DNA from: a bacterium
GTDB taxonomy: Bacteria > Patescibacteriota > Patescibacteriia > CAZCGY01
Assembly (NCBI GenBank): GCA_043807225.1
Contig: JAZDGG010000090.1
Location: 1 to 45,423 of the forward strand
Reading direction: 5' to 3'
DNA length: 45,423 bases
The notes beneath the pieces are model-generated. The model was given only the letters and a program-made list of their open reading frames with translations, was not told the origin of the DNA and did no database searches. This document shows positions 1-33,622 of this stretch, piece by piece. The stretch's first letter is position 1. Each line of letters opens with the position of its first letter. The position numbers were made by a program, and so were the translations under genes.

Positions 1-1617
1 GTTCCTCAATACACCGAAGGTCTGATACAAACGTGGACAGGCCCAACCAGTCCCCTAAACAAAGGTGAGCTTTTAAAACTCTCCTCGGATGAATTAGGTA
101 AGTACCTTCTTTCATGGCAACCAAAAAAGGGATGGGCGGAAGCGTCCCCGGATGGACTTGGCAGAATGCTGTCCGAAATCGTCTCGGAAAACCCCTTGAA
201 GTATAAAAACTTAGCAGAATCACTCTTCGAGCAGAAAGCTCGCCCTATATATCTCTACGATCTCTTTTGGGGGCTTGAACTGGGGCTAAAAGCTAAAGGG
301 AGCATTGATTGGACGGCCACACTAGCCACAGCAAAAAAAATAGTGTTGACGGAAAAGTATGAAGGGTTCCCAGAACCACTAGACGACCATGAATCAGGTT
401 GGCGTTCAGTTCACCAAGCGATTGTCAGCCTGATCGGGCTAGGACTTCTTCGTGAAGAATATCGAATTCCGTTTGAATATCGGGAAACGGTCTGGGCCGT
501 GGTCGAAAAGCTGTGTTCTCATGAAGAGCCGACGCCAGAATTTGAACAGAGGTATGGCGGGAAAAACATGGACCCATTAACGATGGCCATAAACACTGTC
601 CGCGGTGAGGCCTTCCACGCTCTAATCCGGTACGCGTTGTGGTGCAACGACAACTTACACGGGATTGATGATTTGGAGAAAAGGACGGATCGTATGGCTT
701 TAGAAGTAGAGCGAGTTCTCAATGAACATCTTGACCCCGGTGTCGATCCCTCGGTCACAGTGCGTTCTGTATATGGCCAATACCTTCCACAAATATCATA
801 CCTAAACTCTGAATGGTTAACCGCGAATATCACCAAGATCTTTCCAGCCGAACCAGATCTTGATGACCTCTGGAAGGCGGCTATTGGATCGTACTTCTAT
901 AATCGAGTTTACCGTGACCTATTTGCATTACTTGTCCCCGTTTTGAAAACCGGAATCAATAAGCTACTTCCGCATGAGGGCGACGAAGAGTATGAGAAGT
1001 GGGAAGAGGGTTTGGCGCACCAAATCATGCTGGGCTTCGCACATGGTTTTGATGGCGGTGAAGAACTCGCTAAACTATTTTTCCAGAAAGCGTCTTCATT
1101 GGTTAGTGGCAAAGCGATTTGGTTCGTTGGAGCAAATATACTCAACAAGTTTTTAAAGGAATCAGTGGATGGTTTGGGTGTGCAAATTCAAAAGCTGAAA
1201 AATCTGTGGTCAGAGTTTACGGCCAACGATAATCTTAACCCGGAAGTACTAGAGGGTTTTGGATGGTGGTTTGTGAATAGCCCGTTTGAAAAATTGTTTA
1301 CGATACAGCAACTTCTCAAAACACTGGAAAAAACCAAGGGACGGATCGAATGGTCTAACAAGGTTCTTGAAGAGCTTCCGCAATATGCGAAGGAATTTCC
1401 CGAACTTACGATACAATGTGTCAAGCTGCTCCTCGAAGGGGAAGATTCGTTTGGTTCGCTCCAATATAAAGCGCCAACCTACATTCAGGTCATTAAGCTG
1501 GTTCAGGCTACAAAAAGCGTTCGGGCAAAGAAAGTAGCTGATGTGCTAAATGAGCTAGCGGAAAAGGGTCTGGAAAAAGAAGTAGAGGCTGCCTCAGGGG
1601 AGCTACCGATTGGATAA
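1..1617 (+). CDS. Large alpha-helical protein, 5'-truncated by the window edge; function unknown
   Basis: Frame 1 is open from base 1 (VPQYTEGLIQTW...) into the listed ORF 166..1617. At least 538 aa are therefore visible and the true start lies upstream of the window. The sequence is helix-rich and W/L/E/K-rich, with no catalytic motif I can name. Confidence 0.6.
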   Translation, partial: VPQYTEGLIQTWTGPTSPLNKGELLKLSSDELGKYLLSWQPKKGWAEASPDGLGRMLSEIVSENPLKYKNLAESLFEQKARPIYLYDLFWGLELGLKAKGSIDWTATLATAKKIVLTEKYEGFPEPLDDHESGWRSVHQAIVSLIGLGLLREEYRIPFEYRETVWAVVEKLCSHEEPTPEFEQRYGGKNMDPLTMAINTVRGEAFHALIRYALWCNDNLHGIDDLEKRTDRMALEVERVLNEHLDPGVDPSVTVRSVYGQYLPQISYLNSEWLTANITKIFPAEPDLDDLWKAAIGSYFYNRVYRDLFALLVPVLKTGINKLLPHEGDEEYEKWEEGLAHQIMLGFAHGFDGGEELAKLFFQKASSLVSGKAIWFVGANILNKFLKESVDGLGVQIQKLKNLWSEFTANDNLNPEVLEGFGWWFVNSPFEKLFTIQQLLKTLEKTKGRIEWSNKVLEELPQYAKEFPELTIQCVKLLLEGEDSFGSLQYKAPTYIQVIKLVQATKSVRAKKVADVLNELAEKGLEKEVEAASGELPIG

Positions 1618-1753
1618 ACAAGTCACCGACTACAGGAATCAGTATCCTACGACATACTTACTAAATAGTCATATGAATCACTCGCAAGAAAAAATAATTT
1701 CAAAGACAATATTCCTCGAGTTTCTCAAGTGTACAATAAATACTTAGCAACAT

Positions 1754-2506
1754 ATGTCCCAATACTATAACCCCCAACGTACGCGTAATCTCTACGATCC
1801 GGACAGCACCAAACCATACCGCTTGAGCCGGTCGAATATCGACCTCTTCCTGAATTGCCCACAGTGTTTTTATCTTGATCGTCGGCTCGGTGTAAAACGC
1901 CCGCCGGGGTATCCCTTCGCCCTCAATACGGCCGTAGACAAGCTACTCAAACGCGAGTTTGACATCCACCGCGCCAAAGGCACGAAGCATCCGCTCATGA
2001 AGAAGTACAGAATTGACGCGGTGCCATTTGCCCATGAAAAAATCGATGAGTGGCGAGACTCCTTACGACGCGGCATTGCCTATCACCACGCTGATACGAA
2101 TTTCAGGATCACCGGCGGCGTTGACGATGTCTGGGCTAAACCGTCAGGCGCACTGATCATTGTCGACTACAAAGCTACGTCAAAGAGTGAGGAGGTCAAT
2201 CTCGATGCGGACTGGCAAATCGGCTACAAGCGACAGATGGAGGTCTACCAGTGGTTATTCCGTCAAAATGGCTTTCACGTATCGGATACTGGGTATTTCG
2301 TTTATTGTAACGGCAATAGCGATGCAGAAGCGTTCGATGGCAAGCTTGAGTTTGATGTGAAAGTTATTCCATATGAAGGAGATGACTCATGGGTGGAACA
2401 AGCTATTCTGGATGCACATGCCTGCCTGAATGGGTCAGCCATTCCCAAACCGAACCCAGACTGCGACTATTGTAACTACCGCCGATCGGCTAACGAAAAA
2501 AAGTAA
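1754..2506 (+). CDS. Cas4/RecB-like PD-(D/E)XK nuclease with a Cys cluster
   Basis: N-terminal FLNCPQCFYL, GGVDDVW...IIVDYKATSK (D...D/ExK core), RQMEVYQW (QxxxY) and C-terminal HAC...CDYCNY. This is the Cys arrangement typical of 4Fe-4S Cas4/AddB-type nuclease domains. ATG at 1754. Confidence 0.75.
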   Translation: MSQYYNPQRTRNLYDPDSTKPYRLSRSNIDLFLNCPQCFYLDRRLGVKRPPGYPFALNTAVDKLLKREFDIHRAKGTKHPLMKKYRIDAVPFAHEKIDEWRDSLRRGIAYHHADTNFRITGGVDDVWAKPSGALIIVDYKATSKSEEVNLDADWQIGYKRQMEVYQWLFRQNGFHVSDTGYFVYCNGNSDAEAFDGKLEFDVKVIPYEGDDSWVEQAILDAHACLNGSAIPKPNPDCDYCNYRRSANEKK

Positions 2507-2566
2507 CGATCAACATCTTCTTCTTTGAGCTCGAACCCTATATCGCAAAGTAGCATTTGGGCATAC

Positions 2567-3277
2567 ATGACCAGAAGAAAACGCACACAGGCAGACGCAC
2601 AGCAAGGAATAATAGCTCTAGGGTTTATTATTCTTTTCCTTATTGGCTTGAAGAACCCCGGCGCTCTTTGGGCGCTCGTCATCCTTGGAGTAGTTATGGT
2701 TGGAGTTGTGGTGGTTATCCAACGGAGAGCGAGGGCCCGCTTTTTTCAAGAACAAGACACGTTAGAAAAACTCCGAAGATTGACTCCCGGTCAGTTTGAG
2801 GAATACGTCGTCGATCTCTTCCAGCAGCTCGGTTATAAGATGGAACGAGTGGGCGGAAGCTATGACGGCGGTATTGATGTGATTGCCACCAAAGGCGGAG
2901 TGAAACACTTCATCCAGTGCAAGAAGTTTATTACCCGCCAAGTGACGGTCCATGATGTTCGAGATTTCTATGGTGCAATCGTGGATGATCATTCCATGGC
3001 GAGGGCGTTCTTTATTACAACCAATATCTTCACATTGGAAGCGGAGAAGTTCTGCGAGGATAAACCCATCGAGCTGATTGACGGCCAGAAGCTTATGGGC
3101 TATGTGCGCCAAGCCGGAGTTGCCGTCCCAATAATTAATCAGGCAGAGACTGAGCGATGCCCTCGTGATGGAGGAGTCATCGTGAAGCGTGAAGGCAAGT
3201 TTGGCCCTTTTCTTGGTTGCAGCAACTATCCTCGGTGCGCGTATACAAAGTCACTTGAGGTCAATAACAAAGAATAG
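2567..3277 (+). CDS. Membrane-anchored Mrr-type restriction endonuclease with a C-terminal topoisomerase-type C4 zinc ribbon
   Basis: Two hydrophobic helices (IIALGFIILFLIGL, LWALVILGVVMVGVVVVI). Mrr_cat-like core FEEYVVDLFQQLGY...YDGGIDVIA...FIQCKKF. C-terminal CPRDGG...GPFLGCSNYPRC. The track starts at TTG 2525; the first ATG is at 2567, so the start is uncertain. Confidence 0.75.
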   Translation: MTRRKRTQADAQQGIIALGFIILFLIGLKNPGALWALVILGVVMVGVVVVIQRRARARFFQEQDTLEKLRRLTPGQFEEYVVDLFQQLGYKMERVGGSYDGGIDVIATKGGVKHFIQCKKFITRQVTVHDVRDFYGAIVDDHSMARAFFITTNIFTLEAEKFCEDKPIELIDGQKLMGYVRQAGVAVPIINQAETERCPRDGGVIVKREGKFGPFLGCSNYPRCAYTKSLEVNNKE

Positions 3278-3278
3278 T

Positions 3279-3767
3279 ATGCCCAAGATCCTCATTTTTG
3301 AAGACGATCGGATGCTCCGATCCATGTATGAAACCAAATTTACCATGGAAGGTTTTACCGTGGTCGGAAACGATCACCCAACAGAAGATCCGGTCGGCCT
3401 TATCATCAAAGAAAACCCCGCCATCATCATATCGGGTGTTGTTATGCCGGTCATGAGCGGATTTGATGCAGCAAAACTGTACAAAACCGATCAACGGACG
3501 AAAGGCATCCCGCTTATCTTCTTAACCAATCTTGGGCAGAGCAAGGATGTTGAGATGGGTAAGGAACTAGGCGCGGCTGCATACCTGATCAAAGCAAACC
3601 ACATGCCGATCGAGATCGTGAACGAGGTTCGCAGGGTACTCAGATTACCGATACCTCCGGAAAAGCCGATCCCACCGCCTGGCGACGCTTGGCATGGGCC
3701 ATCGGTTGGCGATCTGCCGCCGGATAAGCCGAAATCGTGGTGGCAGAAGTTATTCGGTCCAAAGTAG
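3279..3767 (+). CDS. Stand-alone response-regulator receiver domain lacking the phospho-acceptor Asp, with a Pro-rich tail
   Basis: MPKILIFEDD (acidic pair), IFLTNLG (Thr) and YLIKA (Lys) are conserved. The CheY D57 position reads IISGVVMPVMSG, so Gly replaces Asp. ATG 3279 lies 1 nt after the TAG (3275-3277) of the Mrr-like gene. The track ORF 3189.. is an upstream extension overlapping that gene. Confidence 0.75.
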   Translation: MPKILIFEDDRMLRSMYETKFTMEGFTVVGNDHPTEDPVGLIIKENPAIIISGVVMPVMSGFDAAKLYKTDQRTKGIPLIFLTNLGQSKDVEMGKELGAAAYLIKANHMPIEIVNEVRRVLRLPIPPEKPIPPPGDAWHGPSVGDLPPDKPKSWWQKLFGPK

Positions 3768-3773
3768 ATCGAC

Positions 3774-4847
3774 CTATCGTTGGCCCAACCGCTTAAGGAG
3801 AAGCTCGAACGTTTTTCTGGAGAATTGGCTGAGCTGCCACTTCGCCAATTTGCTGTATGGCTTTTCTCCAATATCGGTTGATGTCTTGATGGTTGGGAGA
3901 ACCGCAGTGACCGCCTCATTCGCTTTTACCCAAGCCGCGTGTGTCCATGTCCAAACTTGAATGCCGCCACCCTCATAGCTCGGATCAATACATAATTGGA
4001 AACTTGTTCGCCCGCTATCATGTTCGGCGGTAATGGTGAAATACTTTGGTGTTTTGGTAGCGACGACGCCTTGAATGGATATTCTGTCTTCTCGTAAGTC
4101 ATTGAAGAGGTCGAGAAACTCCTGTACTGGTCCCTGTTGTCCGACAGTGGTATAGGCTTCAATCAGTTCCTTGTCTGAAGGGAGCGGCGGCCTGGTTTTC
4201 TGAGTTAAATCTTTCTTCGTCTCGGCGCCGAAAAGGTGAGGGATAACGATCTCGAAGGATTCATGTTTGTAATACTTGAGTTCTACTGCGTATACGTCAA
4301 ACTCGCTGTTCTGGTTCAGATAGACAATCAGATTTTTTAATTGCTCATGGAGTGTATCCATGAGCACCACGAACTTGAAACTTCCGTCCTGAAAGTTCCG
4401 CTGGATTTGTTGCAATAATTGACCTCGAGCTTCGTTGTTTAAACCAAAGTATTGTTGGGCACGTTCGCTGAAGTTTGGTTGCCCCTGTTTTTCCAGAGCA
4501 CCGTCAATCTGATTGACAAACAGTTGGTAATCGCGCATTTCGCGCCAGAGAGCGGCCCCGTAGTCGAGGACTTGGGCCACAACAAGCCGCTTGTCCGCGT
4601 TGCGGAACAACTTGGTCTCGATCAGATAAATATTCCCGGCATTATCGATGCCGATGGCATCAATCGGGCCGCTTGAGGTCGAAAACTCCCGCGCGAGGAT
4701 CAGCAGTTTGATGTCTTCACGGATATCATAGATCGGAACCGTTTCGGGATTATTGAAGATAAATTCCTGGAGCGGATCTTCGTGGGGAAATGGTGTAGGA
4801 TCGACTTTCGTCGCCCGAGAACCTTTTTTTGTGATGATGATGGACAT
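3774..4847 (-). CDS. NucS/DUF91-like PD-(D/E)XK nuclease-domain protein with an uncharacterised C-terminal half
   Basis: GPIDAIGIDNAGNIYLIETKL gives a D...ExK pattern in the N-terminal third, as in NucS-type endonuclease domains. ATG at 4847. The gene is convergent with the receiver gene, with a 6-nt gap. Confidence 0.55.
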   Translation of the reverse strand: MSIIITKKGSRATKVDPTPFPHEDPLQEFIFNNPETVPIYDIREDIKLLILAREFSTSSGPIDAIGIDNAGNIYLIETKLFRNADKRLVVAQVLDYGAALWREMRDYQLFVNQIDGALEKQGQPNFSERAQQYFGLNNEARGQLLQQIQRNFQDGSFKFVVLMDTLHEQLKNLIVYLNQNSEFDVYAVELKYYKHESFEIVIPHLFGAETKKDLTQKTRPPLPSDKELIEAYTTVGQQGPVQEFLDLFNDLREDRISIQGVVATKTPKYFTITAEHDSGRTSFQLCIDPSYEGGGIQVWTWTHAAWVKANEAVTAVLPTIKTSTDIGEKPYSKLAKWQLSQFSRKTFELLLKRLGQR

Positions 4848-4889
4848 GGTGGTGGGTGATCCCGCTTGATTGTATCTATTGCATCGCCA

Positions 4890-5429
4890 TTACACTCGGT
4901 GGTGTGCTTTGCTAATCATTTCACGGCCAAGTTTTGTGGCTTCTTGAAATACTTCGGACATCTTCCGGTTTTTGAAGGTCACAATGTTGTCTGCCCTAAT
5001 TGCACTATTATTCCCAATGCCCCAATACGTTTTTTGTGAATTTTGAGTAGCTGGCGTGAGGACTTCGATGGTTCCGGTCATGACACCCTTATTGATTTCA
5101 AGACTGACGATCTGACTGTATTCGAAGGCGTTACATCTGCCGCCGAAGGTACTTCCGGCTTGAAAACCCCACTTGAGGATATAGAGTCGACGATCAGTGA
5201 TCACCAGGCCTTCACCCCACGATCCTTTTAGCTTAGCGAGCACTTTCTCGTTGGCTTGCAGGTTTTTCTGCAACAACTTTTCTCCCCGTCTACCCAAATC
5301 ATGTGAGAGTGTATTCATGGTTTTCGGATTAATATATACACAAAGCTCCGCCCCAGCCGGCAGCCTTTCGACCACCCATGCCCCTTTCGAGACATGACCC
5401 ATCGCTGAGTAGCTGAGCACGGAGCTCAA
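4890..5429 (-). CDS. Hypothetical protein, bacterial PH-domain-like
   Basis: GLVITDRRLYILKWG...FEYSQIVSLEINKGVMTGTIEV resembles bacterial PH (bPH/YokE-like) folds. The start is uncertain: TTG at 5429 or ATG at 5402. No clear RBS. Confidence 0.45.
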   Translation of the reverse strand: MSSVLSYSAMGHVSKGAWVVERLPAGAELCVYINPKTMNTLSHDLGRRGEKLLQKNLQANEKVLAKLKGSWGEGLVITDRRLYILKWGFQAGSTFGGRCNAFEYSQIVSLEINKGVMTGTIEVLTPATQNSQKTYWGIGNNSAIRADNIVTFKNRKMSEVFQEATKLGREMISKAHHRV

Positions 5430-5583
5430 TATCAGCGATGGGATTTATTGCCATGCCGTTCCGAAGAACGGTTTAGGCAACATAGTTATTAGTGAAAGAA
5501 CGTTCGGGCAGAATACCTTGGTCCGGAGGCCTCGAACTGCACTAAGTTTACTCGTATTCCAGGCCTTCTGCAAAGGTTTTATC

Positions 5584-6969
5584 TTACGTCATGGGTTTCT
5601 CCTTTGGTAAGTCGGTAAGAATATGTCGGTCTTTCAGGTAGAGCTTTGTCTTCAGGCATGACAGGAGTTCGCGCTTTTCTTCCCGTGATCCCTCTTGAAG
5701 GATGTACTTGGCGAAGCTCCGCAGATCGATATGACCGATCCTGGTCTTTATCAGACTGTCTCCGAGCACGCTCTCGGTGAACCTCCGAAACCGTTCCATC
5801 TCTTGCTGCAACTTTTCACGGGCGGTGATCTGGTTTAGCGGCAGCTTGTCCACGGTTCGCAGGAGTTCTGCGACCAACTCCTCCTCGCGGATGTACGGCT
5901 CGCCGCAGTCTATGCTTCGCGATTTGGTGCAGTTATAGTAGACATAGCGGCGGGTGGTGCCATTCTTGAATCTCTTGAACTTCTCCTGGGCGGTGATGCC
6001 AGATCCACACGCACCGCAGAGGAGCATGCGGGTGAAGTCGAATTCCTTCGTGCCTGGTTTCGTTTTCGGATGGGTGCTCATGCGGATTTGCACCTCTTCG
6101 AACAACTCTTTCGTGATAATCGATTCGTGGTTGACTGGGTGCCAATTGCCGCTCTTTTCTGGATACTCAAACATTCCGCAGTAGTAGGGTTGGTTGAGGA
6201 TGCAATAGACCGTGCTTAAGGTGAGGAACTTCCCGGTTCGGCTCCGCAGTGGCGTATCGCGGCGTAGCCAGCGGTATATTTCACGTCCGCTGTAGCCGTG
6301 GTAGGCGACTTTCTCAAACATCTCCCGGATGAGCGGCGCACGTTCTTGATCCAAGAATATTTTCTTCTTGCCTTTGACTCCCTCAGGCTGGTTCAAGTAT
6401 CCCAAGGGCGTCACTCCTGGCCGATACCCCATCTGCGCTTTGGCACGCAACCCGCGTTTGACGTTTTCTCCCCGGTTGTCATTCTCCAGCTTCGCTTGTG
6501 AACAGAGGATCATTAGGAGAAATTTGTCGTTCGGCGTATCGGCAAAGGTCTGGCCGTGCGTCCGGATGGCTTCTAGGTATCCGCTGTCCATGAGATCGAC
6601 CAGAATGCCAAGATCACCAGCGTTGCGGCTCAGACGATCTGGCGCCCACGTAAGGATGCCGTTGAACGTGCCTTTACGGATGTCGGTCAGAAGTTCGTTG
6701 AAGATTGGGCGCTGGCCAGACTGTTTGGCCGAGAAGCTCTCTTGTCGGACGTCTTTTACTTTCAGCTTCTCAAGCTTGGCCCGATCCAGCATCTCCTGAA
6801 TCTGTGAATCGATGGAGAGTGCCTGTCGTTCGTCGTCCTCGCTGGACTTTCTGGCATAGAGGCAGTAGGTGACGGGTTTCGTCCGCATAATCGGCAGATC
6901 TGATTTCTGAATCACGCCGTTGATCACCTGCGGTAGTGCGATGGGGGCGGTGTTGGTGTAGATGGGCAT
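5584..6969 (-). CDS. Large serine recombinase (phage/ICE-type integrase)
   Basis: YCLYARKSSEDDERQALSIDSQ (catalytic Ser region) and WAPDRLSRN. A recombinase domain is followed by a zinc ribbon, CGACGSG...YYNCTKSRSIDC. ATG at 6969 is preceded by AGGAA. Confidence 0.9.
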   Translation of the reverse strand: MPIYTNTAPIALPQVINGVIQKSDLPIMRTKPVTYCLYARKSSEDDERQALSIDSQIQEMLDRAKLEKLKVKDVRQESFSAKQSGQRPIFNELLTDIRKGTFNGILTWAPDRLSRNAGDLGILVDLMDSGYLEAIRTHGQTFADTPNDKFLLMILCSQAKLENDNRGENVKRGLRAKAQMGYRPGVTPLGYLNQPEGVKGKKKIFLDQERAPLIREMFEKVAYHGYSGREIYRWLRRDTPLRSRTGKFLTLSTVYCILNQPYYCGMFEYPEKSGNWHPVNHESIITKELFEEVQIRMSTHPKTKPGTKEFDFTRMLLCGACGSGITAQEKFKRFKNGTTRRYVYYNCTKSRSIDCGEPYIREEELVAELLRTVDKLPLNQITAREKLQQEMERFRRFTESVLGDSLIKTRIGHIDLRSFAKYILQEGSREEKRELLSCLKTKLYLKDRHILTDLPKEKPMT

Positions 6970-7091
6970 AATGTGGTTCCTTTCTGGCGCTTGGGCGCCA
7001 GCCACACCATACCGCCCCGGGGTGAGGAGTCTAGTTGGTAAGCTGTAGGTAACTAAAGCCCCAGTAAGGCTCTAAAATACTCCCAAATGAG

Positions 7092-8606
7092 CTACCAACG
7101 GCTCCGGCGGCGAGAGGGGTCTAAGTCGTCTAATGTGACCCCGCAGCGATCGTACATCGCTCTGGCGTTCCCAACGACCCTGTGGGGTCGAGGTTTATCA
7201 CTCGCTCGAATTTTGAAGAGCAATGTGGAAAAGGCATCAGCGAGGTCATCGCAACGCTCGAACCCAAATCCCGTGATCTGGGCAATCAATTCCTCAGCTC
7301 CACGTTTCGGGAATAACACCTTTTTCGTCTCTACCAGCGTGCTGACGAGGGACAGTCTCTCCCGTTTATCCATCGAGCCGACCGCAACGCTTTCTGCCGG
7401 GAACCCATCGTCCTTCAGTTGCTGAATAATGGACGCCTGGTACGCCACATCCTCAATAAACAGTTTTGACAGCTCCTGTCCGGGTGCCAGGGTTCGTGAC
7501 AGGCATTTCGCCTTCTCGAGCGTCCTTGGGAAATCAAGCCGCTCATTGACGGGATTTGGGAGGATCATGATTCGCAGCGTGTCCTTATTTCCGTAGATTT
7601 TCGCTGAGACCATCGCCGTTCGGTTCGCTGTCTCCCGCAGCGAGATAGCCAAATCGATGCCAGTTGCGGTGTGGCGATAATTAGGAATCTCTGGAGGTGC
7701 TGCTGGATCGTAATATTCGAGCCATTCCGGTTTAATCACCTGGTTACTGGGACTGAGGATTTTAAGCAAATACTCCCGGTACCAGGTCACTTCATCGACA
7801 ATGGTTCGGCGCAAGGTTTCCACTGCCTCCATATTCGGAAACTTGCTTTTCCACAAAATTTGACCCTGCTCATCGACTAGGGGATAACGGCGGACGATGC
7901 CGCTTCGTTTATTCTCGTCAATTTGTCGGCTCAGACGCATGAGGAGCGAATCCTCATGCAGCATATTTCCGATCATGATAATTTTCGTTCCGAGGTCACC
8001 GAGAGGAATGATCTCTCCCGTGAACCAGGCATAATCCTTGTCACGCTGTTCTAGTGTTTTGACTGATTCAAGACTCTCGACATCGTCGGCGATAATCAGG
8101 TCAGGACGATTCTCCCAATGTCTGATACCCCGAATCGCTTGTTCGCTCGATGCCACCATAATCCTGGCTCGATACTTCGGTATCACGACGGACATCGCAC
8201 CCCATTGATCACCGTCCTCAAACGGTCCAAGTTCCCGCTTCAGCATTTCGTTATAGTCCATTTCGTTTCGTAGATTAGCCATCAGGATACGGGCTTGGTC
8301 TTTATTCTCGGTGAGGATCAGGACGAATTTGCGTCGCTGTCGGCCGATGATACTCCAGATCGGGTAGGCCAGACTGAAGATGGTTGATTTTGCCGATCCC
8401 CGAAAAGCTAAAATGATCGCCAGTTGAATCGTATCCGATTGTCCAATCCGGAACATTTCGCGGTGGAAGTCAGCCGTTTCGTGTTTCACGTAGTGGCCGA
8501 AGTATGTTGGGAAGAACCAGGCGAAACTCTGCGGTGCGACGCTTTGTCGGACTTCTGGGTCGTCGATCATCGCGTCGATGATGGATTGATCTTCATTTTT
8601 GGTCAT
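7092..8606 (-). CDS. terL: Phage terminase large subunit
   Basis: Walker A-like AFRGSAKST, Walker B-like LIIADDVESL, and a C-terminal RNaseH-like nuclease region (TGIDLAIS). AAGGAGA RBS lies 8 nt upstream of ATG 8606. Confidence 0.85.
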   Translation of the reverse strand: MTKNEDQSIIDAMIDDPEVRQSVAPQSFAWFFPTYFGHYVKHETADFHREMFRIGQSDTIQLAIILAFRGSAKSTIFSLAYPIWSIIGRQRRKFVLILTENKDQARILMANLRNEMDYNEMLKRELGPFEDGDQWGAMSVVIPKYRARIMVASSEQAIRGIRHWENRPDLIIADDVESLESVKTLEQRDKDYAWFTGEIIPLGDLGTKIIMIGNMLHEDSLLMRLSRQIDENKRSGIVRRYPLVDEQGQILWKSKFPNMEAVETLRRTIVDEVTWYREYLLKILSPSNQVIKPEWLEYYDPAAPPEIPNYRHTATGIDLAISLRETANRTAMVSAKIYGNKDTLRIMILPNPVNERLDFPRTLEKAKCLSRTLAPGQELSKLFIEDVAYQASIIQQLKDDGFPAESVAVGSMDKRERLSLVSTLVETKKVLFPKRGAEELIAQITGFGFERCDDLADAFSTLLFKIRASDKPRPHRVVGNARAMYDRCGVTLDDLDPSRRRSRW

Positions 8607-9012
8607 TTGGGTTGTCTCCTTCGGTGAGATTTGATAATTTCAATGCTCGTCGAATCAGCGCTTGCTGTTCGGGCGTAAGCGTGAGATCGTGAACGGTCGC
8701 TTCGACTTCGACTTTGGTTGAATACGCCTTATGCCGATGTTTCAACCAGAAGATGATAGCCGACAAGTTCTTGTTTTGAATCGCTGAAAGTAGATTCGCT
8801 TCGGCCATATCATTCATCTTGTCGATACCTTCCTGTGAGGCCTCTTCTGCGAGCTTTGAGAACTCTTCGTCGTTGTTTCGAAACCTGTAGTAGGTTGCGC
8901 GAGAGACACCGCTCTTTCCACACGCGACTTCGATATTCGGAAACTTACGGAGCATTTCGATCAAGAGTTCCTTTTGTTTCTTTTGACGACGCTGGATAAT
9001 CGAGCTAGACAT
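8593..9012 (-). CDS. Terminase small subunit-like HTH protein
   Basis: The 139-aa protein has an N-terminal HTH (ACGKSGVSRATYYRFRNNDEEF). It sits immediately upstream of TerL and overlaps it by 14 nt. The call is mainly positional. Confidence 0.55.
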   Translation of the reverse strand: MSSSIIQRRQKKQKELLIEMLRKFPNIEVACGKSGVSRATYYRFRNNDEEFSKLAEEASQEGIDKMNDMAEANLLSAIQNKNLSAIIFWLKHRHKAYSTKVEVEATVHDLTLTPEQQALIRRALKLSNLTEGDNPNDQK

Positions 9013-10336
9013 GGTTGATCCTTTCCGGTTTATACCCTGTTAATTTTTCCCACCGCCGAAGGATAACCTGGGCGTATGTGGGTGATTTCTCCATCAAGAA
9101 GCATCGACGTTGCATCTTGGTGGCAGCGATGAGTGTTGATCCACTCCCACCGAATGGTTCGAGGATTAAGTCGTGTCGTTTCGTGAGAACCTTGATGTAT
9201 GGAATAAGGATTTCCAGCGGCTTGGTGCCGAAGATAATTCCTTGTCCCGAACTCTTCTCGTCTGAGGCGTGGTACTCGATGAAGTCCGTCGGAAGATACT
9301 TCTTGCCCTTTTCGTAGTGCTCCCAGTGCGGTTTTCCCGCGATGGCATAAAGCGCCGTTTCGTATTCGTTCTCGAGCAGTTCCAGTTCCTTCGTGTTTAT
9401 TAGGCCGCGATGCTGAGTGGAGGTGCCGACCATTGCAATATCGTGCTTTGAGAAGAAGCGGTACTTGCCGGAGAAACCCTGCTGACGATTATTCAGATGC
9501 CACACTATCATGTTTTTGATTTTCCAATGCTTTTCCATCGCGCCCCAAATAACCCTGATGTTCTTCCAATTTTCGTAGATGATAATGGAGAAGTCTGGCT
9601 TCTGAACTTTCGCGACGTTGGCCATCCACAGCTCGCTGAAGTTTTCGGGCAAGACATCAGTTTCAAGGTAGCGGCGATTTCTCTTTGCGCCGAATCCAGT
9701 GGTGGCGTTGCTGTGTCGCTTTCCTTTGAGATAGTCCAAGATGTATGGCGGGTCCGTGAAACACATGTCCGCCCGCTCTCTTCCCATGAGCTTCAGCATG
9801 TCCGATTCAACCGTCGAGTCACCGCACATCAAGCGTGATTCGCCGAGGCGATAGACATCACTTTTCTTGATGGTGATTTTCTTGATATCGAGCTTGGCGA
9901 GTTCTTTCGATAAATCAAACATTTCCGGAACTTCTGGAGTTTCGAAGACTTCGTCGAGTTCCTCGCTATTGAACCCTATGTTTGCGAGAAAACTCTCATC
10001 GAACTTGGCAAGGAGGCTAAGGTCGAACGCCCCCGTATTTTTATTGAGACGAACATTGAGCTCTTTTTCTTTTCCAAGGTCCGGAATATTAACGAACACA
10101 CATGGTATTTCCTTATAACCCAGCTCTTTCGCCGCCTTTAAGCGCATGTGGCCACCGATGACCACATTTCTTCTCTTTGGGGCTGAATTCACGATGATCG
10201 GATCGACTAACCCGAATCGCTTGATTGATTCTTTGAGCTGACCCAGTTGCTCCGGCGAGTGCGTTCGGGGATTGTACATCGCCGGACGCAAATCCTTGAT
10301 CGAAACTTGGTGGATGGTGAGTTGTTGATTGTTCAT
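9005..10336 (-). CDS. ParB-like nuclease domain fused to an N6/N4 DNA methyltransferase (beta class)
   Basis: ParB N-terminal motifs are IKDLRPAMYNPR and GGHMRLKAAKELGYKEIP. The catalytic motif is CFTDPPY and the AdoMet motif ILEPFGGSGST lies C-terminal to it. This fusion is typical of phage-borne methyltransferases. Confidence 0.85.
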   Translation of the reverse strand: MNNQQLTIHQVSIKDLRPAMYNPRTHSPEQLGQLKESIKRFGLVDPIIVNSAPKRRNVVIGGHMRLKAAKELGYKEIPCVFVNIPDLGKEKELNVRLNKNTGAFDLSLLAKFDESFLANIGFNSEELDEVFETPEVPEMFDLSKELAKLDIKKITIKKSDVYRLGESRLMCGDSTVESDMLKLMGRERADMCFTDPPYILDYLKGKRHSNATTGFGAKRNRRYLETDVLPENFSELWMANVAKVQKPDFSIIIYENWKNIRVIWGAMEKHWKIKNMIVWHLNNRQQGFSGKYRFFSKHDIAMVGTSTQHRGLINTKELELLENEYETALYAIAGKPHWEHYEKGKKYLPTDFIEYHASDEKSSGQGIIFGTKPLEILIPYIKVLTKRHDLILEPFGGSGSTLIAATKMQRRCFLMEKSPTYAQVILRRWEKLTGYKPERINHV

Positions 10337-10343
10337 ACGCGTC

Positions 10344-10727
10344 TTATTTCTTAATAATGAGAACTTTTCTAAGGGAATTTACTTTGCTCAGGAGCGACGA
10401 CTTGAGCTTGATGAGGTTGATTTTTTCTTTAGAGTACGACCTCGGATGCGCCTCAATATCTCGTAAGGTCGCTTGATACCATTGAATTTGCGCCATGAAC
10501 TGATTTCGTGATTCGTCATTCCAAACTCGAACAATTTCATCGATAAGCCTTCTCGTTGTTTGACGTGATAGCCCCAGTTTTGAGGATATTTCTGACACAT
10601 TGAGATACCCCGTTTGTTGCAGATGAGTTTTGATTTCCTGTATGATGCGCTCCCGGACTTCGGGAAGGAGATTCCCATCCAGCGTTCGTTCCTCGGGTTT
10701 GATAAGGGAAAGTTCTGAATTTGCCAT
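10344..10727 (-). CDS. Small HTH protein, putative regulator or packaging accessory
   Basis: LNVSEISSKLGLSRQTTRRLIDEI looks like an HTH. It is the first gene of the minus-strand phage-like block. ATG at 10727. Confidence 0.45.
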   Translation of the reverse strand: MANSELSLIKPEERTLDGNLLPEVRERIIQEIKTHLQQTGYLNVSEISSKLGLSRQTTRRLIDEIVRVWNDESRNQFMAQIQWYQATLRDIEAHPRSYSKEKINLIKLKSSLLSKVNSLRKVLIIKK

Positions 10728-10775
10728 ATGATTAGTGATTAATTCGCTTACCAGTCTAAAGTTTGTAAGTAAGTG

Positions 10776-10806
10776 GATAAAAAACCGCCCAGTCGGTCAG
10801 ACTGGG
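10776..10806 (-). terminator. Rho-independent terminator on the minus strand with no ORF upstream of it
   Basis: The minus strand reads CCCAGTC-TGACC-GACTGGG-CGG-TTTTTT. It lies upstream of the HTH gene start, so it would end a transcript coming from 10.8-11.2 kb. Confidence 0.55.
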
Positions 10807-11282
10807 GGATTCATTAAGGATAGATACCTAATAATAAGGTGTCGTGAACGACGCGTGTCAGAAACTTTTCGCCCATGGTATGTAGGTGGGGCGAAGCTGC
10901 CCTCTGACGAGAGCACCACGAATAAATGGCTCTATCCTACTCTGCCTCTTTCGGGTAAGTTGTGGAGAACGTTTTTATCTGTCTCAACGGTAGCGCTCTT
11001 GGAGAAAAAGTCAATCCTAGATATCCACTCTCGAAGACGCTGGATCACTCATGATAACTCTTGACTGGCTGATGGTTGTTAATAAATTCCTAATTCTCTT
11101 TGAGCAGAAATACTTGGTAATGAATCCCACCACTCTCAGCCAAGATATTGAGATAAGGAACCACCAACTTTCATGGCCGAGAGCATGAAGGATTTTCTCT
11201 CAGATGCTTCTCATGAACAAACGAAACCTTGATTATATCGTCGAAGCGTGCGACAATGTGGTCGATAAATTTTTTGTTGATC

Positions 11283-12143
11283 ATGCCCAAACGCCGTCAA
11301 AAGAAACGAATAGTGAAGCGCGCGTCTGCGCCAAAACGATCGATAAGCGCCGTGAAGATCCAAACTCTCCGTACGCTTACCGATCAAATCGGAGAGATTA
11401 TCCCCGCTACATCTTTTAATAACCGAGGGCTCTGTTTTGCTCGCATCGCGAAAACCAATGGATTAAAGAAGATGTGGCCCGAAGACGGTTCGAAGAAGGA
11501 TCGAATCTTCACTTTCCTTCAGAAAGTATATCGGAGTCATCCGAGGATGTTTTATAAAATCTTCCGTGAAAATTTGCCCCTGGGAATTGAGCGTCGGCAC
11601 AAAGCTGGTAGTCCGGTACTAAAAGCGGAGATTGAAGAACTCAACAAAACATTGAAACTGCTCAACGTGAATCTCTCGACTGAAATTCATGGGTTAGATT
11701 TGCCCGCCGAACGCCCCTCTATTGTGCCGCCTCCGTACGAGTTCAAAAAGATGGTGGATAATATGTCGTTGCACCCGATACTGCAGCCGCAATGCATCAA
11801 ACTTTTTACTGATGGTCATATTAACGAATCGGTACGAAAAGCACTTGAGAAATACGAGAAACACGTTCAGCAGCTCTCCGGTCTGATTGATCCGATCGGG
11901 AAAGGATTGATGGCGAATGCTTTTTCTGAAACCAGCCCCAGGATTCGTATTGGCGATATCACAACCAAGCGGGGTAAGTCGCTACAAGAGGGGATCAAAT
12001 TTCTGTCGATGGGAGCAATGGAATTTTGGAGAAACCTTCTGAGTCACGGTGACGAAAAGCAAATGCCCCACATCGACGCAATAGCCATTTTAGCCACCGT
12101 CAGTCATTTGTTGTATTACATCGAAAATAATCGGATGGCATAA
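11283..12143 (+). CDS. TIGR02391-like (Hypoth_Ymh) C-terminal domain protein with a basic N-terminus
   Basis: LHPILQPQCIKLFTDGHINESVRKALEKYEKHV...GLMANAFS...QEGIKFLSMGAMEFWRNLLSHGDE follows the family pattern, including the RNxxxH motif. ATG 11283 (MPKRRQKKR). The track ORF starts earlier at an alternative codon. Confidence 0.65.
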   Translation: MPKRRQKKRIVKRASAPKRSISAVKIQTLRTLTDQIGEIIPATSFNNRGLCFARIAKTNGLKKMWPEDGSKKDRIFTFLQKVYRSHPRMFYKIFRENLPLGIERRHKAGSPVLKAEIEELNKTLKLLNVNLSTEIHGLDLPAERPSIVPPPYEFKKMVDNMSLHPILQPQCIKLFTDGHINESVRKALEKYEKHVQQLSGLIDPIGKGLMANAFSETSPRIRIGDITTKRGKSLQEGIKFLSMGAMEFWRNLLSHGDEKQMPHIDAIAILATVSHLLYYIENNRMA

Positions 12144-12144
12144 T

Positions 12145-12483
12145 ATGCAAATCACCATTTCTTTTAATTGGCCGCCAGCAACCGAATCCGCACGCGTATT
12201 CTTCGGTTCATTCAATATAGAAGATCCTAACTTCTTGGTAAAAGTGGGCGTTATCACGAAGGCCGATCCGGTACACGTGCGTTGGTTGAAGGCTCAGTTT
12301 CTTGATAATGACATGCTGAATGACCTTACATTCGATGTGAAACGAGGCGATAAAGTAGTCGTGGAAAAATATGCGAAAGAAAATAAGACCACGCCTGTCG
12401 GAAGTTATAGCTGGGATACGGGCGAGAAATGGCCACCGGAAGCCAATGGCGGTACGAGCACTGATATTCCATGGGCATTCTGA
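12145..12483 (+). CDS. Hypothetical 112-aa protein, tightly coupled to the TIGR02391-like gene
   Basis: ATG 12145 lies 1 nt after the TAA at 12141-12143. I recognise no motif. Confidence 0.5.
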   Translation: MQITISFNWPPATESARVFFGSFNIEDPNFLVKVGVITKADPVHVRWLKAQFLDNDMLNDLTFDVKRGDKVVVEKYAKENKTTPVGSYSWDTGEKWPPEANGGTSTDIPWAF

Positions 12484-12747
12484 TTTGTAAACTTTCGATG
12501 AAAAAACGGCTAGTATCGTGCCCGGGTGCATCCTCAAAACCATCGAAATGAGACATGAAACGCAACCCCTTAAGGTCTGTCTCATTTGTCTCAAATCTCC
12601 CTGAAAATCGCTAAAGACCCACAAACCCCTTCAAAGGGTTGGTTCTAGACCGGAGTGGCGAGCCAATCATCAACGCTGCTTCCCAACCGACCCCTCTCCG
12701 GTTCGGTTGTGGTGGGTTGTGATACAATCTCTGCGTAGCACGTTACT

Positions 12748-13398
12748 ATGCAGGCAACTCATCTCCACAAAAAAGTGAACGACCTCCAAACGCAGTTTGG
12801 GGATTCTCGGCTTGCACCAATCTATGGAGCGGGGTGTATCAAGCATCCGGTGCTGATGCTGGTTTTTATGAATCCGACGGGAAAGAACGTTGCCGCAAAG
12901 AAGTCCTGGCGAGGTTTACGGGCGCCATGGCTTGGAACAAAAAATGTCTGGAAGTTGCTCCATCGCATCCGTGCCATCTCGACGGCTCATTTTCGCGCGA
13001 CACAGCAATTGAAACCAAGTGAGTGGACGCCGGCGTTCTGCAAATCGCTCTATAGCGAAATAGCAACACATCGGATTTTCATTACGAATTTAGCGAAATG
13101 CACCCAACAGAATGCACGGCCGCTCGCAAACACCATTTTTGAAAAATATCTGAAAGTTTTTCAAGAGGAAGTACAATTCGTCAAACCGGAGAAAATCATT
13201 CTTTTTGGTAATCAAGTAAGCTCAATTCTTCTGCGCAAGCGGATTTCTGTTCGCGATTATCCAGGTATACAATATGAAAGAATCACCATCAGCAATGCCC
13301 AGTATCTCGCATATCCAACGTGGTATCCTGTTGGTCAGGGGATGAGGAATCTTCATTTGGCAATTCAAAGAATCCGCAAGATTATTGCAGAGATATAA
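12748..13398 (+). CDS. Uracil-DNA glycosylase superfamily protein
   Basis: LMLVFMNPTGKN resembles motif A of MUG/SMUG-type enzymes (G-I/M-N-P-G). FITNLAKC and ILFGNQVS are typical of the UDG fold. I did not assign a subfamily. Confidence 0.55.
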   Translation: MQATHLHKKVNDLQTQFGDSRLAPIYGAGCIKHPVLMLVFMNPTGKNVAAKKSWRGLRAPWLGTKNVWKLLHRIRAISTAHFRATQQLKPSEWTPAFCKSLYSEIATHRIFITNLAKCTQQNARPLANTIFEKYLKVFQEEVQFVKPEKIILFGNQVSSILLRKRISVRDYPGIQYERITISNAQYLAYPTWYPVGQGMRNLHLAIQRIRKIIAEI

Positions 13399-13456
13399 CG
13401 ATGCCCCCGTCCCTTGTGGGGCGTCATTGCCTGTCTCTTTGGAGAGAGAATCTCTC

Positions 13457-33456: not shown

Positions 33457-33531
33457 CGCGGGGTGGAGCAATGGCAGCTCGCAAGGCTCATAACCTTGAG
33501 GTTGGCGGTTCAAGTCCGCCCCCCGCAACCA
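33457..33531 (+). tRNA. tRNA-Met (CAT), initiator-like
   Basis: Hand-folded 75-nt cloverleaf. The acceptor CGCGGGG/CCCCGCA has a C1:A72 mismatch, the bacterial initiator hallmark. The anticodon loop is CTCATAA, the T-arm is GGCGG-TTCAAGT-CCGCC, and CCA is encoded. Confidence 0.85.
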
Positions 33532-33547
33532 GACGTCGCTCTCGCGT

Positions 33548-33622
33548 GGCAGGGTAGCTCAGTGGTAGAGCAAAGGACTCATAAGCCTTAGGTCGTGGGT
33601 TCGACTCCCACCCCTGCTACCA
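33548..33622 (+). tRNA. tRNA with CAT anticodon (elongator Met or lysidine-modified Ile2)
   Basis: 75 nt. The acceptor is GGCAGGG/CCCTGCT with G1:U72, the D-arm is GCTC-AGTGGTA-GAGC, the anticodon loop is CTCATAA, the T-arm is GTGGG-TTCGACT-CCCAC, and CCA is encoded. Confidence 0.8.

Follow-up and report, generated by a model that had tools for sequence, protein, structure and literature searches.

The defence-associated sirtuin 1 (DSR1) is a single-protein defence that depletes nicotinamide adenine dinucleotide (NAD) (Gao et al. 2020, Garb et al. 2022). Its Dsr1 sensor is shared by Avs7 and by non-STAND proteins with diverse N-terminal effectors, split forms included; for the E. coli Dsr1 and Salmonella Avs7 sensors the trigger is the phage major capsid protein, and defence requires the effector (PMC12803255, a January 2026 preprint). 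Here, we analysed a gene for a sensor of this type, together with the three genes that follow it, at the left end of contig JAZDGG010000090.1 (assembly GCA_043807225.1; Patescibacteriota). The window, meaning the whole stretch of DNA that was analysed, is the entire 45,423-bp contig. Prophages and phage satellites are known to hold defence hotspots, such as the P2/P4 hotspots and the immune systems borne by phage-inducible chromosomal islands (PICIs). We propose, with a probability of roughly 80%, that positions 1-3767 form the right-hand end of a variable array of defence cargo in a small integrated phage-like element, and that the genes in it are independent cassettes rather than one machine. 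A sequence-only reading of the same DNA had instead taken these genes for a single candidate defence system, in which the first encodes a sensor- or scaffold-like protein, the next two encode nuclease effectors, and the last encodes an adaptor. The four open reading frames (ORFs) and the spacer behind the first are as follows, with protein lengths in amino acids (aa).

1-1617, plus strand: ORF1, 538 aa visible, 5' end open; C-terminal part of a Dsr1/Avs7-type alpha-solenoid sensor (PADLOC Dsr1)
1618-1753: AT-rich ORF1-ORF2 spacer of 136 nucleotides (nt), with an extended -10-like string, TGTACAAT, at ~1729-1736
1754-2506, plus strand: ORF2, 250 aa; stand-alone Cas4/RecB-like PD-(D/E)XK nuclease with a cysteine cluster
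2525 (TTG) or 2567 (ATG) to 3277, plus strand: ORF3, 250 aa counted from the TTG; stand-alone Mrr-type endonuclease with two transmembrane (TM) helices and a C-terminal topoisomerase-type zinc ribbon
3279-3767, plus strand, ATG start: ORF4, 162 aa; pseudo-receiver with a receiver (REC) fold and a Pro-rich tail ending SWWQKLFG, closing the cargo array

Read from the sequence, the gaps between these genes are 136 nt, 18 or 60 nt, and 1 nt, the last lying between the ORF3 stop (TAG, 3275-3277) and the ORF4 ATG at 3279. This reproduces the layout as first described. The truncation of ORF1, earlier put down to the edge of the window, is real, and its cause is the end of the contig. A consensus scan found no promoter or terminator site between the four genes, with counts at or below shuffle expectation, and it is possible that the 1618-1753 spacer holds a promoter belonging to ORF2. 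The guanine-cytosine content is 48.4% in 1-13400 vs. 55.3% in the rest of the contig, and chromosomal genes (Nramp, SufBD, SufS, and glycosyltransferases) are found from ~13.4 kb on. The earlier description of an AT-richer island beside phage genes was therefore accurate, those genes being the large and small terminase subunits (TerL and TerS) and a ParB-methylase at 7092-10336.

Backbone and cargo of the element

To the right of ORF4, the window element encodes a serine recombinase, TerL, TerS, and a ParB-methylase. In the regions read, genes for capsid or tail proteins were absent. Its features are listed here, with the identity of backbone proteins in related elements to those of the window where applicable.

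3774-4847, minus strand: ORF5, 357-aa protein with an N-terminal NucS-like PD-(D/E)XK domain, convergent with ORF4; 62-79% identity
5359-5479, minus strand: LOOT RNA (Rfam RF03000), 90.4 bits vs. a gathering score of 46.4
5584-7005, minus strand: large serine recombinase (Pfam Resolvase, Recombinase, and Zn_ribbon_recom; CcrB-like, 4e-35)
7092-8606, minus strand: TerL (PHROG 38, 8e-69); ~45% identity
8593-9012, minus strand: TerS (PHROG 4044, 2e-9); ~38% identity
9005-10336, minus strand: ParB-DNA methyltransferase (PHROG 498, 7e-83); 64-75% identity

Three or four related elements were examined. REC (ORF4, 59-63% identity to the window copy), ORF5, TerL, TerS, and the ParB-methylase form a backbone common to the window, L093/L104, and L095/L103, whereas the cargo differs from one element to the next. 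Upstream of REC, the cargo genes are as follows.

Window: Dsr1-like, Cas4-like, and Mrr
L103: methylase, ResIII/SNF2, KAP nucleoside triphosphatase (NTPase), PycTM, and Cas4-like
L104: SNF2/PLD helicase, MmeI-type restriction-modification (RM), and three genes of no named family, with macro and NERD genes after REC
L097: methylase, T5orf172, and ResIII
L098 and L100: other genes again

As in the P2/P4 and PICI hotspots, a backbone flanks a slot whose RM, Abi-type, and nuclease content varies between related elements. The difference lies in the backbone, which in the window family consists of a serine recombinase, TerL/TerS, a ParB-methylase, a NucS-like nuclease, a pseudo-receiver, and LOOT. 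The suggestion that the genes sit in an anti-phage island fits well with these observations, as defence-type cassettes occupy the variable slot of a phage-like element. These observations give no support to a new system architecture; the locus is a cargo hotspot built of known gene kinds.

The second line of evidence comes from what accompanies the ORF1 family elsewhere. Scanning one genome per species with the family alignment gave 80 loci from many phyla, and the full set, including earlier loci, comprised 86 (L001-L004 are the same gene in near-identical context and are counted separately). When the six-frame ORFs of these loci were searched with the window proteins, no ORF2 homolog turned up in any of the 86, a weak Mrr (ORF3) match was found at a single locus (L086), and a weak and distant REC (ORF4) match likewise at one. 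Nor was any downstream gene conserved: after clustering of all ORFs within 3 kb downstream, sharing was seen only among closely related Nostoc genomes. Relatives of ORF2, ORF3, and ORF4 were each found without the others. The same-order co-occurrence of all four genes in other genomes, put forward earlier as a check on the single-system idea, was not observed, and only the ORF2 plus ORF4 pair recurred, in one related element. Tight co-directional nuclease-rich strings in AT-rich islands can be independent cassettes, and a co-occurrence test separates such cases quickly.

The solo nucleases and the pseudo-receiver

The identities first read for the three smaller ORFs were borne out by profile searches, hydropathy, and alignment. 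ORF2 matches PDDEXK_1 (PF12705, E = 9e-17, residues 23-244) and resembles Cas4/RecB PD-(D/E)XK nucleases in this fold and in its (D/E)xK (VDYK) and QxxxY (QMEVY) motifs. Its five cysteines (35, 38, 224, 237, and 240) include the one N-terminal and three C-terminal positions typical of an iron-sulfur (Fe-S) cluster. ORF2 falls below the Cas4 equivalog cut-off (TIGR00372, 33.5 bits vs. 65). It also differs from the Cas4 of clustered regularly interspaced short palindromic repeat (CRISPR) systems in having no cas1, cas2, or CRISPR array, standing solo in the defence or cargo arrays of mobile elements. The window holds no CRISPR-like repeat array, and no cas-type match was found among the scanned neighbours (Pfam and PADLOC). 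Judged from its sequence, ORF2 is not a CRISPR Cas4, in agreement with the earlier statement that the locus is not CRISPR-Cas. As a solo Cas4/RecB-like Fe-S nuclease, it would act autonomously.

Viral contigs hold two ORF2 relatives (63-64% identity). In L006, the homolog comes after DUF3644 and DNA methylase genes and before a T5orf172 gene, and in L007 it has HsdR and a SMODS-SLATT pair upstream. An S-adenosylmethionine (SAM) riboswitch (L006 7597-7709, L007 7613-7714) followed by metK, the SAM synthetase gene, lies just 3' of the variable defence genes in both contigs. A closer relative (81-83% identity, L095/L096) comes after KAP NTPase and PycTM genes, with REC 3 nt away. Outside the window, ORF2 recurs in three mobile-element contexts (L006, L007, and L095), each time packed tightly behind unrelated defence genes.

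These contexts also bear on the strongest alternative, in which ORF2 and ORF4 are housekeeping genes of the element, not defence genes, and ORF3 was recently inserted between them. ORF2 might then serve in recombination, replication, or counter-defence, and ORF4 as a regulator of the element. The close ORF2-REC spacing in L095/L096 speaks for this, as do the retention of REC in all related elements, the phage exonucleases among the PHROG matches of ORF2, and the pairing of ORF2 homologs in L006 and L007 with the same downstream riboswitch and metK behind upstream genes that vary. Still, L093 has REC and the full backbone without ORF2, ORF2 found no match among 50,697 GenBank phage records, and no recombinase partner (RecT, Erf, or SSB) was seen beside it. 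We consider a housekeeping role for the pair, and the particular roles named here, unlikely.

ORF3 matches Mrr_cat (PF04471, E = 4.2e-27) and Zn_ribbon_Top1 (E = 6e-12) in Pfam, and mREase_IV (2e-16) and PDC-S02 (1.8e-14) in PADLOC. With Mrr/type IV enzymes of these groups it shares the Mrr_cat D...QxK motif (IQCKK) and its occurrence as a stand-alone gene that needs no cognate methyltransferase. It differs from them at both ends. No winged-helix DNA-recognition domain was found by Pfam, and residues 1-70 form two hydrophobic helices (~28-42 and ~47-65 by hydropathy) in place of the N-terminal winged-helix DNA-binding domain, while a topoisomerase-type zinc ribbon of three Cys and one Asp (C3D; C212, D215, C232, and C238) is added at the C-terminus. 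Metagenome contigs yielded five ORF3 relatives (48-70% identity), whose neighbours differ from those in the window and include no homolog of ORF2 or ORF4. For the catalytic-plus-ribbon part, 597 plasmid records were matched, among the matches listed mostly annotated as "restriction endonuclease," and no ORF3 relatives were found in viral contigs. ORF3 would be a membrane-tethered, type IV-like, modification-dependent nuclease that most likely works alone. The sequence-only reading had set aside a classical RM system because no methyltransferase was adjacent, a statement that needs correcting to the extent that a phage-type ParB-methyltransferase lies 5.7 kb away.

ORF4 matches Response_reg (PF00072, E = 1.4e-11, 45 bits vs. 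a cut-off of 30.2). A Gly occupies the position of CheY D57 and Spo0F D54 (alignment A3), as expected for a receiver without its phospho-acceptor Asp. The residue is lost only in the ORF4 subclade nearest the window, and more distant homologs retain it. At the C-terminus, a tail (LPIPPEKPIPPPGDAWHG..PPDKPKSWWQKLFG) is conserved between ORF4 and its close homologs; homolog P0024 has a TM segment in the tail's place, and P0017 and P0018 carry an N-terminal HisKA-like extension. ORF4 would not be phosphorylatable at the canonical site and would act, if at all, through its conserved Pro-rich, Trp-rich tail.

Homologs of ORF4 at 56-70% identity stand behind six different upstream genes, and in the contexts examined REC is packed 1-17 nt after a co-directional gene that varies. 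Because these homologs share the backbone while the upstream genes differ per element, ORF4 is, as far as gene neighbourhoods can tell, an element backbone gene that closes a variable array and not an Mrr-specific adaptor. A pseudo-receiver as the conserved terminus of the array is one of three points of residual interest, next to the helical effector that predominates in the sensor clade and LOOT as a marker of the element.

The ORF1 sensor and its partners

ORF1 was matched by the PADLOC Dsr1 model (PDLC04166, E = 2.7e-35, profile 726-1057 of 1227) and by no Pfam family. It was originally described as all-helical, with no nameable motif, in a module that maps to no named system. The first part holds: for the visible 538 aa, AlphaFold2 (AF2) gives an all-helical alpha-solenoid with a predicted local distance difference test (pLDDT) score of 88.9. 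The other two parts do not, as ORF1 belongs to a named family, that of the Dsr1 sensor. A Foldseek search of the model against the PDB, a check proposed at the outset, returned generic HEAT/ARM solenoids alone, which does not discriminate between families. A sequence search of solved structures yielded neither a Dsr1 nor an Avs7 entry, and ORF2 and ORF3 had no match there either.

The ORF1 family is large (3295 representatives at E <= 1e-3, of which 1092 reach E <= 1e-30), with homologs of either ~900-940 aa or ~1100-1200 aa. Full-length homologs match the Dsr1 profile at ~310-1126 of 1227 only, which corresponds to the sensor part without SIR2, and contain no Pfam domains, no Pfam SIR2, and no NTPase domain. 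The family resembles DSR1 in its homologous C-terminal sensor, in consisting of one large protein for which no downstream partner is conserved, and in that some relatives keep SIR2 as a separate upstream gene. With the Avs7/Dsr1-sensor proteins of PMC12803255 it has in common a helical-repeat sensor, no STAND NTPase, varied N-terminal effectors, and split forms, its membership being drawn through the PADLOC Dsr1 model rather than by direct comparison with the preprint sequences. The best match to ORF1 among 185,579 species representatives has 43% identity, and the nearest genome relatives are mostly candidate-phyla bacteria. ORF1 is a divergent addition to the Dsr1/Avs7 capsid-sensor family.

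What does accompany the sensor lies on its N-terminal side, where 75 of the 86 loci have one of three modules.

Type A helical module (~220 aa), separate gene directly upstream of the sensor: 35/86 loci
Type A, fused to the sensor: 17/86 loci
Type B, a remote relative of A, fused to the sensor: 15/86 loci
SIR2_2 protein (~300 aa), separate upstream gene matching Dsr1 profile 14-290, i.e., a split DSR1: 8/86 loci
Truncated, no module assigned: 10 loci

By hhalign, types A and B are distantly homologous (probability 95.9%), and the neighbour-joining tree shows effectors being exchanged along the sensor phylogeny. The commonest partner in the window's sensor clade is the helical A/B domain, not SIR2. 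Among the best 149 library representatives, 62 were long, and these carried A in 40 cases, B in 21, and SIR2 in none. The nearest relatives of ORF1 are 1113-1121 aa long and carry A or B at residues ~10-210, and window residue 2 aligns with their residue ~583, so that ~580 N-terminal residues are missing from the window copy. Every member of the window ORF1's clade in the tree bears a fused A or B. Given this clade, the long relatives, and the length and alignment of the nearest ones, the missing residues probably include a fused A/B helical domain. As the family is built, the real partner of the sensor is an effector on its N-terminal side, off the contig, and not the nucleases downstream.

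These comparisons also speak against ORF1 being a classical DSR1 whose N-terminal SIR2 NADase was lost at the contig end. Dsr1 is the best PADLOC model for ORF1, and the eight split loci do pair related sensors with SIR2_2. By contrast, a fused SIR2 was absent from the 62 long relatives, of which all but one have A or B, and both the window's clade and the nearest full-length relatives are of the A/B type, with the ~200-aa helical domain standing in place of the NADase. We regard a classical DSR1 as very unlikely.

A family of ~220-aa all-helical proteins or domains (P0032-P0088), encoded directly 5' of Dsr1-type sensors or fused to them, is exemplified by L001 7351-7995, L005 410-1120, and L026 8077-8748, and occurs at ~50 other loci. 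Its stand-alone members have seven invariant residues (H53, R56, E57, E60, K61, H174, and H175), and the AF2 model of a stand-alone type A partner reached a pLDDT of 84. A HEPN identity was considered for type A and rejected, as the Rx4-6H motif is absent and matches to PF18165 and HEPN families are only weak. We put the A/B module forward as the candidate effector of the sensor clade. With its invariant His, Arg, and Glu, fused or encoded upstream, it is a tractable target for biochemistry.

By analogy with the described sensors, the ORF1 solenoid would bind a structural protein of the phage, which in the tested members is the major capsid protein, and this binding would switch on the N-terminal effector and abort infection. 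In the nearest relatives, that effector would be the ~200-aa all-helical domain with invariant H, R, E, E, K, and HH rather than SIR2. It is also conceivable, though we rate it as distinctly doubtful, that ORF4 is a regulator or gatekeeper of the cargo slot in undescribed ~18-kb phage-like elements without capsid and tail genes (in the regions read) and, separately, that A/B is a new effector class for capsid-sensing Dsr1-type receptors.

Several points weigh against reading the locus as independent cassettes headed by an effector-bearing sensor. The N-terminus of ORF1 is off the contig, and its putative effector is drawn from relatives at only 35-43% identity. The type A partner found no match in the PDB by Foldseek (best E 0.41), and the A/B domain has no Pfam family above threshold, with only weak matches to PF18165 ("predicted pPIWI-associating nuclease"). 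A capsid trigger has been shown only for EcDsr1 and SeAvs7 (PMC12803255). The contexts available are also few, namely three plus one plasmid for ORF2 and five short contigs for ORF3. In addition, the 1-60 nt gaps and common strand would permit co-transcription of ORF2-ORF4, and the adjacency of ORF2 and ORF4 elsewhere, although limited to one related element (L095/L096), makes a functional link between them possible.

The four genes forming one new system, in which ORF1 as sensor or scaffold activates ORF2 and ORF3 through the ORF4 adaptor, is extremely unlikely, since the shared strand, tight spacing with a 1-nt ORF3-ORF4 gap, defence-compatible domains in all four, and lack of a predicted terminator between them are outweighed by the failure of the genes to co-occur and by a family effector that is N-terminal or encoded upstream.

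Other features of the element and the contig

ORF5 is a third nuclease beside ORF2 and ORF3, and among related elements its conservation exceeds that of the terminase. In PADLOC, it matches the candidate PDC-S11 (E = 8e-15), and there are weak matches to NucS_C and NucS.

A short distance 3' of the serine recombinase gene in the window, LOOT overlaps the annotated ORF6 start. It was also found in L095 (8151-8267, minus strand), L093 (9720-9839, minus strand), and L097 (529-649, plus strand). In related elements it sits between TerL and the ORF5 homolog, and in L097 it is directly upstream of the RM cargo array. LOOT may be a leader, or it may mark the border of the variable region. The backbone supplies a genomic context for this orphan Rfam motif, and LOOT in turn can serve as a marker of the element.

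L103 (1-17600), which extends L095, holds a complete element of ~17-18 kb running from a serine recombinase at one end to chromosomal genes. It contains the defence cargo array, REC, an ORF5-like nuclease, LOOT, TerL, TerS, and the ParB-methylase, and no capsid or tail genes. L103 looks like a satellite or cryptic element. Placement of the recombinase differs, as it lies between LOOT and TerL in the window and at the element end in L103.

At its chromosome-proximal end, the island carries two genes, which may be further accessory ones. One (11229-12143, plus strand) encodes a Hypoth_Ymh/TIGR02391-domain protein (E = 1.8e-22), and the other (12748-13398, plus strand) has weak similarity to family-4 uracil-DNA glycosylase. 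Farther along the contig, two tandem tRNA-Met (CAT) genes 17 nt apart occupy 33457-33622 (plus strand), and a 153-nt tandem duplication of 2.2 copies (44617-44960) lies inside a minus-strand ORF near the right end.

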